Below, in pieces: positions 6,700-56,653 of a stretch of DNA of 64,000 bases. Positions within the stretch are counted from its first letter, which is position 1, and each line of letters starts with the position of its first letter. This stretch comes from a virus. Its lineage: Duplodnaviria > Heunggongvirae > Uroviricota > Caudoviricetes. Both the position numbers and the translations under genes were made by a program. The stretch is taken from positions 304,437 to 368,436 of the IMG/VR virus record IMGVR_UViG_3300031414_000001, one strand, 5' to 3'. The notes beneath the pieces were generated by a model that was not told where the DNA came from, did no database searches, and worked only from the letters and a program-made list of their open reading frames with translations.

Positions 6700-7233
6700 C
6701 AGCAAGAAAATCTAAATTAAAACGTACTTTACCTCATTCATATCTGACGAGATTTGTTGAGGCATTTTCATCCCCCCGCTGGGGGCTTGAAACCTGACGA
6801 TGATAGTCGTCGGCATTATTGTATTGAGAATTACTTTTAGAGTAGTGCAGAAGCGGGTTGTTCGGTATTCTTCTTATCTCAGTTCTAACAACGGTCGAGG
6901 TCTTAGCTCGCATAATACTAAATCTATACAATCAAATCTAGTACTTGAAAACAGCAAAATTTGGACGGATCTATATTGTACAAATTTCGGTGCTTTCTCC
7001 CTTATCGGATATTGGTAAGGTAGCATCCTTATATGTCTATCGAGGAAGTACATTACGATTGTAGTACTTCTTTATAGAGCCGCATTGCCGTGGACGGTAC
7101 AAACTATGCCGATTCCTAACGGGTTTCTTCTGCTCTTTGAACTGCTTGAACTTCTCAACTATCCAATTACATTTTCATCGGACTAGGGTTTACAACATTA
7201 GGGGCAATTAGCCCCTATCAAACAGAATTGTAT
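6700..7233 (-). ncRNA. candidate ~530-nt structured ncRNA
   Basis: no credible ORF, promoter at 7240-7268, multiple hairpins (AGGGGC/GCCCCT, GAAGTAC/GTACTTC, GACGA/TCGTC, CCCCC/GGGGG). Confidence 0.55.
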
Positions 7234-7239
7234 TGGTAC

Positions 7240-7268
7240 ATTATAGCACAGAATTTTGTGCCGTTTCA
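7240..7268 (-). promoter_or_regulatory. class 2 promoter
   Basis: TGAAAC-N17-TATAAT; the same spacing recurs 8 times in the window. Confidence 0.7.
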
Positions 7269-11368: not shown

Positions 11369-12364
11369 TTAATCAAAGTTGATATTGTTGCGTTCAACGA
11401 TGCGACGTACTTTATCCATCATATCATTGTAACGGCGTGAAAGAGTTGCCTTAGAAGTTACGAACTTACCTTTACCATCAATATAACCAGATGTGATAAT
11501 TTCATCAAAGGTATGCATCTTATAACCATCAAGGCCGTGACATAAACCAAGTAACACACGTTCGTGTTCTTCCAGTTCATCCATGATTTCATCCATCACG
11601 GTAAGGAAGTCTTTGTTCATGACACGTTCATCAACAACGTAATCAGCACTATCAGAAGTAATCACATCTTTCAGTGTTTGTTCTGAACCTTCTTCACCGC
11701 GATTCATCGGTGTGTCAATGCTGAACGTGTTGGCGTTGTAGTTCATTATACGCTTCACTGCCCGAATGTCAATCCCTGTACCAGCAGAAATCTGCTCATT
11801 CGTTGGATAGCCAGTGTTTTCAGTCGTATAACGCTCAATGAACGCCTGAATGCGAATGTTATCGCGTGACAGGTGTTCTGGTAACGCAACCATACGAACT
11901 TCGTTGTTACCATTACGGTACATATGCTGACGAATAGTAGTTGTAGCGTAAGTACTGAAACGTGTAGTCAATTGACCGTTGTATCCGTAGATCGCTTTCA
12001 TCAATCCTTCGAAACCATATTGAACTTTATCCTGGAAAGGAATGTTACAGGTACAGTTCTTCGCTTCGTTGTAAACTAGACCGCTATTGAACAGAATGAT
12101 TTTGTTCTTCGCTTCTTCTACGTTTACACCTTCTTGAACCATTTTAACTAGTTCTTCGTTGCTGATGTATTGTTCCGCTTTAACCGCCGCTTTGAGTTTA
12201 TCCAGAGTTAGACCACCTTCAGGAACTGAATCATCTGATCCTTCGTCTTCATCATCTTCCGACAATTCCAACAGATCATTGTTTTCATCTTCGAAGCACT
12301 CATTCAGTACTTCATCTTGGATTTCTTCTAAGTTTAGTTGTTTCGGACCCACAGCAATCTCCAT
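11369..12364 (-). CDS. sigma70-family RNA polymerase sigma factor
   Basis: region 2 GFEGLMKAI..RFSTYAT..IRQ, region 3 PTNEQIS/SIDTPM, region 4 LEEHERVLL. Confidence 0.85.
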   Translation of the reverse strand: MEIAVGPKQLNLEEIQDEVLNECFEDENNDLLELSEDDEDEGSDDSVPEGGLTLDKLKAAVKAEQYISNEELVKMVQEGVNVEEAKNKIILFNSGLVYNEAKNCTCNIPFQDKVQYGFEGLMKAIYGYNGQLTTRFSTYATTTIRQHMYRNGNNEVRMVALPEHLSRDNIRIQAFIERYTTENTGYPTNEQISAGTGIDIRAVKRIMNYNANTFSIDTPMNRGEEGSEQTLKDVITSDSADYVVDERVMNKDFLTVMDEIMDELEEHERVLLGLCHGLDGYKMHTFDEIITSGYIDGKGKFVTSKATLSRRYNDMMDKVRRIVERNNINFD

Positions 12365-12594: not shown

Positions 12595-12816
12595 TTACTC
12601 CTTCGGTGATAAAGTGAGTTCAACGTGTAAGCCCAGGGCTTCTACACATACCAGCAGTTCATCAATGGTGAACATATAAGAACGTTCATCCAACAGATTT
12701 GAAACACGAGCCTGATGCATATCGAATTTACGGGCAAGGTCACGCTGACCTAAACACTGCTCAGCAGCTTCTACCTTAATACGATTAATCAGACGAGATT
12801 TGATTTGTTTGATCAT
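12595..12816 (-). CDS. XRE-family HTH protein
   Basis: GQRDLARKFDMHQARVSNLL...FTIDEL. Confidence 0.8.
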   Translation of the reverse strand: MIKQIKSRLINRIKVEAAEQCLGQRDLARKFDMHQARVSNLLDERSYMFTIDELLVCVEALGLHVELTLSPKE

Positions 12817-12853
12817 GATTAGTACCTTACTTAATAGTGGCTAAATTAAAAGT

Positions 12854-12967
12854 TGCCGGATTTCTCCGGCGGGTTTTGGTTTGGTAGTGACTCACCCACC
12901 GCCTCACCATCCGAAACACCTTTACCGCACTAGGGCTGACCATCTCACAGGTAGTGGGGAATCTATG
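12854..12967 (-). ncRNA. candidate small structured RNA
   Basis: own promoter (12974-13002), CCCACTACCT/AGGCGGTGGG stem, terminator-like GCCGGA/TCCGGC hairpin. Confidence 0.4.
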
Positions 12968-12973
12968 CTTTAC

Positions 12974-13002
12974 AGTATAGTCGGCTGTTCCCTGGTTGTC
13001 AA
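12974..13002 (-). promoter_or_regulatory. sigma70-type promoter (class 1)
   Basis: TTGACA-N17-TATACT. Confidence 0.8.
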
Positions 13003-13184
13003 GGACAGTTGTGAGATTATGCTACACAACGCAGAGACAACTCATTTGCTCACTATCCAACTATCTTATAATATCACAAGCATTTAGCGAATGATAGTAC
13101 TCGATGTTGGTTTGTGAATCGCTATGTGCTAGTCCTCTCCGAACAGATTATAGCACATAACTTCGCAGTACTTCAATTTTGATT

Positions 13185-14019
13185 GTGAACTTCGTTCGGG
13201 AAGTTCGACACGTGTCGCTAATCAAGCATCTCTCGAAAGAGGTCTGTACCTACGCAATACAGATAACACATGTTTGGAACACACACGGACTAGATCTACC
13301 GTACCCGCAGGAAAGTCTTCTGCTGACTTCATCAATACCTTTCGGTAAGTCGTGTTCCTACTCATATATGCGACTGGCAAACCCCTTTCGACCCATCAAT
13401 TGGCACTAAGCCCACAAAGCGAATCGAACAAGGCGTACACTTCCCGCAATGTTTACTACCGATCTTCGCAATTCCCCGCCGAAACGGGTTATTGTATATT
13501 CGAGTTCAGGTATCGACGCTATAAACAGTCATCCTCTTTATACCGGCAATCTTATCCCATTCTCGAAATTGGTTGCCCTTACTATTCAAGGGCGAAGTCA
13601 GACATGAACAGGCTTCACAGTTTCCGCCGAATCCGATTTCGGATATACTCGGCTCAACTCCACCTCGGATCTCATAGTATCCCAAGTTCATCGCAATTTG
13701 TCAGCTTTAACCCGGTACTTTTGATGGCGATTATTGCTCAATGTCGCCGTACCCAAGTTATTGCTCGCATCATTTATAAGTAAAAGGGTTGAATCAGTTA
13801 ATTACTTCATGACGGCGATCTCCTATAGTTCCGGTTCGCGGGGCGACGCTGCTCCCGCTGGGTTCTACACGGCAGTCTACACGCTGTAGTACTGCGACTT
13901 TTGCTCATTTAGAGCCGCAAATTCAAGATTATCTAGTTTCCAATTAAGTTATAGTTTATCTGTTACATCTGCGTTCAATCCTCTTTGTCAGTTATCGTCG
14001 TTTTCACGTTCACTTCAGA
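13185..14019 (-). ncRNA. candidate ~830-nt highly structured ncRNA
   Basis: strong promoter upstream, no credible ORF, GC-richer than flanks, many UUCG/GNRA hairpins. Confidence 0.7.
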
Positions 14020-14025
14020 GTCTTC

Positions 14026-14054
14026 ATAATACTATCTAGCGAATCGGCTGTCAA
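14026..14054 (-). promoter_or_regulatory. sigma70-type promoter (class 1)
   Basis: TTGACA-N17-TATTAT. Confidence 0.8.
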
Positions 14055-14325
14055 GTACTTTTTTCTATTTCTTTCAACTTTTCACCCTTAAGTACTTTAC
14101 AGTACCAGACAGTGCGAGTGTGCTTCCTGTCTTGAGGTGTCCAGTATATCACAACCACTCAGGCTGTCAAGGACTTTTTTAATCTTTTTTTTACAGAAGG
14201 TGCATCTCAGGTGATACCACTAACAAGATGATAATCAATATCATCAGTACTAATTCTTCACCCCAGGACATAATTCTTCTCACTTAATAAGGAGGGGAAA
14301 CATCCCCTCGATGTAGAACATCTTA

Positions 14326-14592
14326 TCACTTCACGGCTTTTACGTCAAGCCCCCATTTGCCACTAGCATTCGGAGCATAATGTAAAGTACTCTTTACAAT
14401 TTCTTGTAACTCAACTACTTCATGGACATAGTGAGTACTGACCAGCATGAACTTCCTGGCGTACTCTACAGCGTCCGTAGCGGTTTCGAATAGCTTAGCG
14501 TCGCTTTGTAAATTCGTGCGTACTGGAGTCGCCCAGCGGTTTTCACGAATGTACTTGTATTCAGAATCAGTTTGTACACGGATAAAGAACAT
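14326..14592 (-). CDS. hypothetical protein
   Basis: ATG 14592 after GGGGG RBS. Confidence 0.7.
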   Translation of the reverse strand: MFFIRVQTDSEYKYIRENRWATPVRTNLQSDAKLFETATDAVEYARKFMLVSTHYVHEVVELQEIVKSTLHYAPNASGKWGLDVKAVK

Positions 14593-20570: not shown

Positions 20571-21704
20571 ATGGCTCACCCAATAGCAGGTGTTAATGAA
20601 TATAGATATGGCGAATGTGGTTATATCGTTGATGGGGCATTACTTAAAAATAATGTTAAATTAAAAAATATACGCATTTTCAAACAACGTTCAGTTAACA
20701 TCTTTGATTTAATGGACTATGATACAAATGTCATTTATCAATATGTACGTATTACCGGTTATGATTCATATAATGATGTTCTTGATTATTCAAAAACTGA
20801 TGATGAACTTTTAAATGAAATTCCAGTCAATACATTCTTTGTTCGTGGATATAATAGTGACATGTCCGTAACAGGATTTGTTATTCGTTTCCAGAATAAT
20901 AAAGTCTGTTTAGCAGACGGTAGGTATATGTTTGATATGTATATACCTGAATGTAGTATTGGTCCAATTGATATTGGTGTAGTAACTGTTAGTACTATCG
21001 CAATTGGCACTACTACTGTAACAGGTACTATTAGTGCTGTTAGCGGATCATTAGATACTACTGGAATGGTTGTTACTATGGAAATCGAAGGTGTTACTTA
21101 CACAGCAACACTAGATGGTCGTAACTTTACATTCACAGATGTTATTGTAACCGAAACTGGTAATGCTGTAATTACAATTACATCACCAAAATACAATACC
21201 AAGGAAGTTGATGTTCCTATTGTAAGTGAAGCTGATACAGATTATGTTACTATGTACGCAGTATCTGGTTCTCAAATGATCGATAATGGTGATGGTACAT
21301 ATACTTTTACATTAGAAAATACAGTACACAGCCGTGGCTCGAATGTTGTAGTTCAGATTCAAAATATTAATGGTACTATCTATAATCCAGATGTTAGTGT
21401 AGATAATGCTGGGAACATCACAGTGACTCAAACTGATAATACAGATTATGATATTATAATTGTTGGTCCAACTAATGTGAGAACTGTTTACAGTACTTCT
21501 CTAGTATGGTCAGCTAGTGGTTCAGATTTCACAATGTCTATTCCATACAGCACACACATGAAACAAAGCCCATCATTATCAGTATATGATTCTGGTGGTG
21601 ATCTTGTTCAAGTACTAGTTAGTATTGATAATTCAGATAACATCACTCTTAAAAGTTCCGAGAACTTTACAGGTAAAGTTGTTATCACTGGCGTAACCGC
21701 ATAA
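20571..21704 (+). CDS. putative virion structural protein (beta-rich, Ig-like repeats)
   Basis: only plus-strand gene, GGAGG RBS, Thr/Val/Asp-rich beta repeats, late-promoter-like element. Confidence 0.6.
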   Translation: MAHPIAGVNEYRYGECGYIVDGALLKNNVKLKNIRIFKQRSVNIFDLMDYDTNVIYQYVRITGYDSYNDVLDYSKTDDELLNEIPVNTFFVRGYNSDMSVTGFVIRFQNNKVCLADGRYMFDMYIPECSIGPIDIGVVTVSTIAIGTTTVTGTISAVSGSLDTTGMVVTMEIEGVTYTATLDGRNFTFTDVIVTETGNAVITITSPKYNTKEVDVPIVSEADTDYVTMYAVSGSQMIDNGDGTYTFTLENTVHSRGSNVVVQIQNINGTIYNPDVSVDNAGNITVTQTDNTDYDIIIVGPTNVRTVYSTSLVWSASGSDFTMSIPYSTHMKQSPSLSVYDSGGDLVQVLVSIDNSDNITLKSSENFTGKVVITGVTA

Positions 21705-22985: not shown

Positions 22986-23240
22986 GGTGTTACCTCTTAG
23001 GTTTATTGAGTTTCTTTGTTACATTCATTGTACTACAAATTTTTGGCATACGCAACAGGATTTTCACCTGTATCCCCAGAACCCCTCTCATGGGCGAACC
23101 AGAATCCTATTAAGCTATTGTATCAAGTACTGTCTGATAACGCAAGCAAAACATTAGACGATACGTAATATCGTGAAGATGGTCAAGCGTGTTGACCCCT
23201 GGCAGCAGCCAGCCGTAAGTCGTACTTTTCAATCTTCTAG

Positions 23241-49760: not shown

Positions 49761-49829
49761 TTCTGTACCCTCATTGATTAAGAGATAGTACTATATCATA
49801 CCGCTTCGTTCCCGTCAAGGAAAATTTAG

Positions 49830-49906
49830 TGCAAGGGGATGGACTCGAACCATCGACACGGAGTTATACTAAGATAATCTTGCTCTACCGTCTGAGCTAC
49901 CCTTGC
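49830..49906 (-). pseudogene. tRNA with aberrant enlarged anticodon arm (TAG-like loop)
   Basis: perfect acceptor, D and T arms; 21 nt instead of 17 in the anticodon arm. Confidence 0.65.
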
Positions 49907-56473: not shown

Positions 56474-56580
56474 ATAGTGTTTGGTGAGAAAGGTTCAGGC
56501 TACCTTGAATAGAATACAGGACTTAAGTGCAAGTTGCTGAACTCTTACACACCCTCATTTCATCGGTTCTTTCTCATTTG

Positions 56581-56653
56581 TGGCTCATACCAGATTCGAA
56601 CTGGTGTGGACAGAGATTTAGAGTCTCCCGCTACGCCTCTCAGCTAATGAGCC
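56581..56653 (-). tRNA. amber suppressor tRNA (anticodon CUA)
   Basis: intact cloverleaf GGCTCAT/ATGAGCC, GGAGA-CT-CTA-AA-TCTCT, canonical T arm. Confidence 0.92.

Follow-up and report, generated by a model that had tools for sequence, protein, structure and literature searches.

A probable gene for a large structured non-coding RNA upstream of the sigma-factor gene in tRNA-rich jumbo phages

The window, a 64,000-nucleotide stretch of a complete 371-kb virus record with 28–29 tRNA genes on the minus strand, very probably carries on its minus strand a gene for a large non-coding RNA whose domains, judging from comparative sequence evidence, are held by covarying helices, a kink-turn (k-turn) and loop–loop pairings. 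An earlier note on the same DNA had proposed a promoter-driven ornate non-coding RNA at this place, and synteny, the loss of reading frames and strong covariation in homologues bear the proposal out. RNAs this large and complex are seldom found in bacteria and phages, and GOLLD, ROOL and OLE, the orphans known so far, are still without a biochemical function. The RNA described here apparently forms an undescribed family within the known kind of large ornate phage RNAs. It has some features peculiar to it, stands as a separate family among the largest ornate RNAs and is narrow in range, being confined to one clade. Its cultured lytic carriers (GAP32, CBB, BF, fHe-Yen9, XbC2 and Kaldavass) and its natural variants (the 630-nt minimal form of fHe-Yen9-04, a deletion strain and a half-length form) allow direct tests by structure determination, expression analysis and deletion.

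Locus, homologues and transcription unit

With the sigma-factor genes of Erwinia phage Kaldavass and Xanthomonas phage XbC2, that of the window phage shares 97% identity, and with those of GAP32, CBB, BF and fHe-Yen9 it shares 69–74%; the window phage is therefore a Mimasvirus-like jumbo phage. The RNA locus is bounded by a 119-codon ORF, which ends at 14326, and by the HTH_37 gene, which starts at 12816. In CBB, the counterpart region is predicted to contain early genes with RpoD-like promoters (PMC5259590). By blastn, 19 phage records have the element in this very place, and to these pattern and synteny searches added metagenomic copies. Full-length versions of 630–982 nt, 53–97% identical, occur in about seven phage lineages just upstream of the HTH and sigma-factor genes, and the domain order is identical in all of them, down to 53% identity. 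Partial versions keep the 5′ half only (L011) or the promoter and the 21-nt 5′ motif only (XaC1 and L025).

The RNA is absent from the more distant relatives Munch, Hallingskeid, EJP2 and 121Q, and a model of its 3′ domain finds nothing significant in these four, in XaC1, in the L011 genome or in E. coli; more distant sigma-gene loci hold no trace of it. Exact-pattern scans with the 5′ and 3′ motifs gave 0 matches in 185,579 prokaryote genomes, looser patterns over viral contigs added only chance matches in coding DNA, and the main domains were never found away from this locus. Genomes with the structured domains have 32–35 tRNA matches, as against 7–12 in the others, a difference that counts as one event because these genomes form one clade. 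We infer that the RNA gene is not essential to these phages and serves as an accessory in their tRNA-rich branch. No non-coding RNA is mentioned in the CBB, fEgEco12 and XbC2 papers, and a literature search of incomplete coverage found no description of this one; the Fremin 2023 catalogue contains motifs of 30–151 nt only, among which single sub-domains of the RNA could be listed.

Table. Features of the RNA locus, all on the minus strand; functional and structural assignments are predictions
Feature	Position in window	Strand	Remarks
Upstream sigma70 promoter P1, extended −10	14143..14170	−	116 nt before P2; present in 9/13 homologous loci
Sigma70 promoter P2, TTGACA-N17-TATTAT	14026..14054	−	A-rich upstream element; 11/12 consensus letters; kept in 13/13 homologous loci
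Main structured RNA, ~900 nt	13117..14019	−	Conservation across homologues
21-nt 5′ motif	13963..13983	−	SD-like GAGG, 11-nt spacer, AUG (13968–13966) directly followed by UAA (13965–13963); weak hairpin
Pseudoknot PK1	13693..13737	−	Loop 13737–13734 with internal-loop strand 13696–13693; hand-anchored, checked by script
Central domain, three-way junction	13601..13702	−	Helices 13702–13699/13604–13601 and 13690–13686/13609–13605; two independent two-sided changes
Kt-7-type k-turn with variable arm	13611..13664	−	Strands 13664–13655 and 13623–13611; 3-nt bulge, tandem G-A/A-G, 3b-3n = A-G
Variable middle region	13360..13600	−	One conserved hairpin (13593–13575); other arms gained or lost between phages
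Multiway junction	13276..13358	−	Closed by 13358–13352/13282–13276; as many as four hairpin arms; two-sided changes at three positions
Compact 3′ domain	13117..13275	−	Four-way junction 13273–13208, hairpin 13206–13187, final helix 13161–13121, three loop pairings
Loop pairings of the 3′ domain	13254–13250/13168–13164; 13224–13220/13178–13174; 13199–13194/13144–13139	−	98.4% of cells paired
Promoter consensus inside the 3′ domain	13147..13176	−	−35, 18 nt, extended −10; kept in all lineages; aligned like the phage's other promoters
Separate SroH-like RNA module	12908..13022	−	Own overlapping promoter 13002–12974
Terminator-like hairpin	12848..12870	−	Stem 12870–12855; U-run offset by 3 nt; odd form in all full-length homologues
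HTH_37 protein gene	12595..12816	−	PF13744, E 3.7e-13; directly downstream of the RNA unit
Phage sigma70-like factor gene	11369..12364	−	Downstream of the HTH_37 gene; anchors synteny

Two sigma70 promoters in tandem precede the RNA (Table). The proximal one, P2, is the promoter that the earlier note had described, and it recurs at the same place in every homologous locus compared; the distal one, P1, had been missed. The leader that the two form does not repeat as a cassette elsewhere in the phage genome. Transcription is predicted to start near 14019–14021, and conservation stops near 13117, a conserved helix extending 70 nt beyond the hairpin previously taken as terminal. The large non-coding RNA of the earlier note therefore stands, while its length of ~830 nt does not: the RNA measures ~900 nt and lies inside a unit of ~1.17 kb. 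This unit is likely the primary transcript, reaching the terminator-like hairpin and so adding the SroH-like module, and no internal terminator was found within it. The distance from promoter to 5′ motif varies between 64 and 105 nt across homologues, and GAP32 and CBB have extra hairpins in this interval (two in CBB; L003:3041–3070 and L004:3041–3090).

The longest minus-strand ORF inside the RNA has 61 codons, in line with the earlier statement that there is no plausible minus-strand coding sequence. The sole long plus-strand ORF (13352–13783, 143 aa) has no Pfam match. Since this frame is interrupted by 2–6 in-frame stops in 15/15 homologues, even at 97% identity, and since most indels among the homologues have lengths that are not a multiple of 3, there is no credible ORF on either strand. 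The region folds more stably than its shuffles (z −3.16, 0/20 shuffles equally stable) and the sense strands of the homologues give z-scores of −3.0 to −7.3; antisense z-scores are likewise negative, so the minus strand was assigned from the promoters and from the ratio of G-U to A-C cells in paired positions (49:5) and not from folding energy. The same ratio argues for an RNA over DNA hairpins. That the locus is not an RNA gene, and carries either a protein gene missed by annotation or no more than promoters and hairpins acting at the DNA level, is extremely unlikely and already largely refuted: although the 143-codon ORF exists, short hypothetical proteins are annotated here in some records and real promoters overlap the region, the loss of the frame in all homologues counts against a protein, and the two-sided changes together with the G-U excess point to single-stranded RNA from one strand.

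Architecture of the RNA

The RNA as a whole comprises three conserved multiway junctions and four loop pairings. All six hairpins listed in the earlier note exist (13644–13631, 13593–13575, 13488–13475, 13347–13336, 13241–13230 and 13206–13187), with two qualifications. Those at 13644–13631, 13488–13475 and 13347–13336 are strain-specific forms of variable arms and not conserved sequence, and the supposedly terminal one at 13206–13187 is internal, its loop pairing with that of another conserved helix (13161–13121).

The most conserved sequence is the 21-nt 5′ motif. Its six varied positions all fall in the 11-nt spacer and none in the ten letters of Shine–Dalgarno (SD) sequence, start and stop; the chance of such spacer-only variation, calculated by hand for a pattern noticed post hoc, is 462/54264 = 0.009, with four of the six changes coming from one genome. 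The SD–AUG distance of 10–11 nt is long, and sites of this kind, with SD and AUG-UAA, number only 13 on the two strands of the genome. In E. coli, SD-led start-stops load ribosomes (Meydan et al., 10.1101/520783). These bacterial sites likewise consist of an SD-like sequence, an AUG and an immediate stop, but they lie inside genes, whereas the candidate site here heads a non-coding RNA. A conserved hairpin loop would account for the same letters, and we treat the SD and start-stop reading of the motif as a lead. An antisense match of the motif to tRNA T-loops, which needs a bulge and fails in L010, was dropped.

In the central domain, the predicted k-turn (C helix, 3-nt bulge, tandem G-A/A-G, NC helix), identified by comparison with the known consensus (PMC4382518), is kept at the sequence level in 9/11 homologues with varied flanking pairs, and takes a variant form in CBB and L023. 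The pseudoknot PK1 lengthens to 5–6 bp with matched changes in CBB, L023 and L010. A natural mutant exists in fHe-Yen9-03, where an internal deletion of ~150 nt relative to fHe-Yen9-04 removes most of this domain (L007:3050–3080), which makes it suited to functional comparison. In the variable middle region, XbC2 has an insertion of ~52 nt (L002:3620–3675), which marks a tolerant surface position.

Support is best for the domain formed by the last 165 nt: of its 648 cells (54 pairs), 96.8% can pair, against 28–45% in slid controls, and 0/500 shuffles, which ignore relatedness, pair as highly. Two-sided changes occur in 26/54 pairs and are spread over many separate helices and lineages, so the covariation check suggested in the earlier note came out positive; for the wider 3′ half the count is 34/65. 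Helix lengths are nearly constant in these 165 nt and the rest of the RNA takes large insertions, as would be expected of a fitted three-dimensional core with peripheral arms. The four loop pairings are likely, not proven: each pseudoknot or loop pairing combines invariant complementarity with one or two compensatory events at most, among related genomes, and relatedness by itself produced 2/4 perfect column pairs. A systematic scan yielded no covarying or convincing helix joining the 5′ and 3′ halves. A 5′/3′ closing helix of 6 bp, paired in 88% of cells with one change, was not accepted, being inconsistent and in competition with the final helix, and neither was a 13600/13165 helix, whose compensation is inconsistent.

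Comparison with known RNA families

Rfam scans of the window and its homologues at gathering and E-value thresholds gave no relevant match to the ~900-nt RNA; the cmscan named in the earlier note, against GOLLD, ROOL, OLE and group I/II introns, thus returned zero matches to it. Two core motifs and four accessions are likewise missing from the part of the published GOLLD/ROOL alignments that was compared. The likeness of the RNA to GOLLD and ROOL is one in kind (size, orphan status, a tRNA-rich phage) and not of family.

For GOLLD, the likeness in size drawn in the earlier note holds, and the lead to the family, which the note left unconfirmed, is not supported. GOLLD (RF02032) and the RNA share a length above 800 nt, a conserved 3′ domain, a more variable 5′ part and a phage-borne location, and among the full-length homologues (630–982 nt) conservation is indeed best in the 3′ domain. 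The RF02032 model finds nothing at E ≤ 10 in the region, the whole genome or six homologous loci, in a search that had no true GOLLD as positive control and whose control genomes matched only below the cut-off. GOLLD often adjoins tRNA genes, whereas the closest tRNA here is at position 23240, ~9.2 kb from the RNA gene. In its assembled state GOLLD is an RNA-only 14-mer cage.

A ROOL identity is excluded with a working positive control: RF03087 gives no match at E ≤ 10 in the whole genome or the six homologous loci, while the same cmscan detects the ROOL of pMP118 (130.4 bits, E 5e-27), and the 3′-domain model of the present RNA has no match in that ROOL. Both are large orphan phage-associated RNAs with multistem junctions and pseudoknots, apparently dispensable and found in tRNA-rich settings. 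ROOL has six multistem junctions along with three pseudoknots (PMC5737381), whereas here three junctions and four loop pairings follow in another order, giving similar complexity with a different topology. ROOL also has a long helix closing its 5′ and 3′ ends, of which there is no covarying counterpart here, and averages 581 nt, unlike the ~900-nt RNA, which is restricted to enterobacterial jumbo phages.

OLE is likewise large and ornate and contains a k-turn as well as kissing loops, but its gene lies on the chromosome of Bacillota and its partners are Oap proteins, whereas the neighbours here are HTH_37 and sigma70-like genes; there was no Rfam match to OLE, and no Oap gene is annotated beside the locus. 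Several further candidates were rejected. The 6S RNA model (RF00013) has 0 matches on the whole genome, with controls above the cut-off in 4 genomes, and cmscan and ARAGORN were negative for RNase P RNA and tmRNA. The family profile finds nothing in rrnB, and mimicry of 16S helix 3 comes down to a 10-nt shared word (position 27) that is not significant over 24 tests and is broken in L010. The likeness to SAM-I is limited to the common k-turn, P1/P3 elements being absent by eye.

Catalytic RNAs typically show a density of junctions, loop pairings and invariant positions like that of the 3′ domain, with its four-way junction, three loop pairings and ~45 invariant columns in 160 nt. The compact 3′ domain could on that ground be a ribozyme or ligand-binding core of a new kind, or the whole RNA might descend, as a domesticated relic, from a self-splicing intron or the RNA of a mobile element. 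We consider this very unlikely, as the models of group I and group II introns, of RNase P and of the small ribozymes all fail to match, no gene is interrupted, no reverse transcriptase or nuclease gene is linked, and an overlapping promoter (see below) explains part of the invariance. Group I and II introns were also rejected directly, with no core-model match at E ≤ 10 in the region or its homologues and with complete ORFs on the flanks and promoters of the RNA's own. The only hairpin resembling a D5 (13654–13627) sits in a strain-specific arm.

One likeness concerns the add-on module and not the ~900-nt RNA flagged by the earlier note. The SroH model (RF00372) scores 19.9 bits on the module (E 0.002 per genome), short of the gathering threshold of 80 bits, and a profile of the phage module copies picks exactly SroH in a 26-kb stretch of E. 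coli, weakly (E 0.014 scaled to the genome). The module is a possible remote SroH homologue, and a phage RNA family may include the SroH of E. coli. The module is absent from GAP32, fHe-Yen9 and L010; close copies of it occur by themselves, in intergenic positions in T4-like phages and, in Pseudomonas KIL phages, with tRNA genes on both sides (L048:1454–1558; L049:1463–1567).

Possible modes of action

GOLLD and ROOL assemble by kissing loops into cages made of RNA only, ROOL reaches the abundance of 16S rRNA although it is non-essential, and ribosomes are pulled down by GOLLD (10.1101/2024.12.08.627333). From this precedent of abundant, dispensable, self-assembling phage RNAs and from the anatomy of the RNA we propose a mode of action, tentatively and at somewhat less than even likelihood. 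Host sigma70 polymerase would make the RNA early and in bulk from the tandem strong promoters. The RNA would act in trans and stoichiometrically, and its domains would need no protein of their own to fold into a compact particle, either a monomer or a GOLLD/ROOL-like oligomer, of which the triple-pseudoknot 3′ domain would be the core and a nuclease barrier. The loosely folded 5′ end would offer its SD and AUG-UAA site to host ribosomes, which would load and be released at once. Such loading would protect the 5′ end and, while the host is being taken over, keep the particle attached to the translation machinery. Geometrically, the loop pairings seem feasible within a single chain, so oligomerisation is drawn by analogy only, and no conserved palindromic loop like those in the symmetric bridges of GOLLD or OLE was seen by eye.

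The start-stop motif and the triple-knotted 3′ domain give two handles for asking whether ribosomes, polymerase or cages are involved. We think it unlikely that the RNA represents a new class, a phage RNA of ~900 nt that on its own folds up as an ordered and perhaps oligomeric particle and makes contact with the host ribosome by way of the SD/start-stop handle or with the host polymerase by way of its promoter-like 3′ domain. If true, no ornate RNA before it would have had such a clue to its mechanism built in, and it would occur in culturable enterobacterial phages.

Against a single particle speak the missing 5′/3′ covarying helix and the separate loss of halves in L011, XaC1, L025 and fHe-Yen9-03. 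The transcript might instead be polycistronic, a precursor from which several small RNAs are cut (the RNA of the 5′ motif, the k-turn domain, the multiway junction, the 3′ knot and the SroH-like RNA), all independent and each with its own partner. Such a precursor would fit modules lost independently of each other, the lack of detected inter-domain covariation, an SroH-like module that occurs by itself in other phages and the promoter-like sites inside the 3′ part. It is nevertheless an unlikely account given the constant domain order in full-length homologues, main domains that were never found apart from the locus and the absence of an internal terminator; GOLLD, moreover, is a single chain whose 5′ and 3′ domains are likewise separable.

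The position of the locus suggests action in cis, as full-length copies always lie directly upstream of a gene block ending in the sigma gene. As a giant leader or antiterminator, the folded RNA would aid read-through of a weak terminator into the HTH and sigma genes and so time the switch to phage-sigma promoters. The conserved offset of the U-run suggests that the terminator is leaky, and no promoter was found between the 12855 hairpin and the HTH start. Spacing argues the other way: in fHe-Yen9 and L010 the terminator-like hairpin comes almost directly after the 3′ domain, whereas in the window it follows a whole inserted module, the distance ranging from ~20 to 260 nt across homologues. 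Relatives also have the sigma gene without the RNA, L011 has HTH and sigma genes without the 3′ half, and known antiterminator RNAs are far smaller. Taken together, a cis-acting role is improbable.

The promoter consensus inside the 3′ domain allows yet another role. The domain could act as a polymerase decoy, displaying a −35 and an extended −10, the latter partly unpaired in an internal loop, and, like 6S RNA, binding the sigma70 holoenzyme of the host, to the advantage of the phage sigma factor. The consensus and its 18-nt spacing are kept in all lineages inside covarying helices, the sigma gene adjoins, and RNAs other than 6S that bind polymerase exist (PMC11077062). However, the 6S model finds nothing although its controls are positive, the final helix has only ~11+3 bp, and a working DNA promoter is the simpler account of the consensus, as ~47/51 such −10 sites on the same strand have a recognisable −35 (counted by eye). 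A decoy is thus a doubtful prospect, with very little likelihood in our view; the consensus is probably a real DNA-level promoter overlapping the RNA, which accounts for part of the sequence invariance of the 3′ domain.

A second ORF-free family of ~460 nt was observed in five dispersed copies, one in the window (~6745–7205, minus strand) and four elsewhere (250945–251393, 105441–105915, 20997–21480 and 186517–186981 in whole-record coordinates). It has zero Rfam matches and occurs by blastn in 77 phage records, nearly all of them GAP32/121Q/RaK2-like with 3–5 copies each; kinship with the ~900-nt RNA was rejected, as the profiles do not cross-match either way. ARAGORN predicts a tRNA with a CUA anticodon, possibly an amber suppressor, and one with an 8-nt anticodon loop (56580–56653 and 49829–49906, minus strand). 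Finally, ~37 promoters genome-wide belong to the divergent class known from CBB, with a non-standard −35 and an extended −10 (PMC5259590), for example at 7248, 23490, 23579, 33098 and 37166 in the window; they are candidate targets of the phage sigma factor encoded at 11369–12364.
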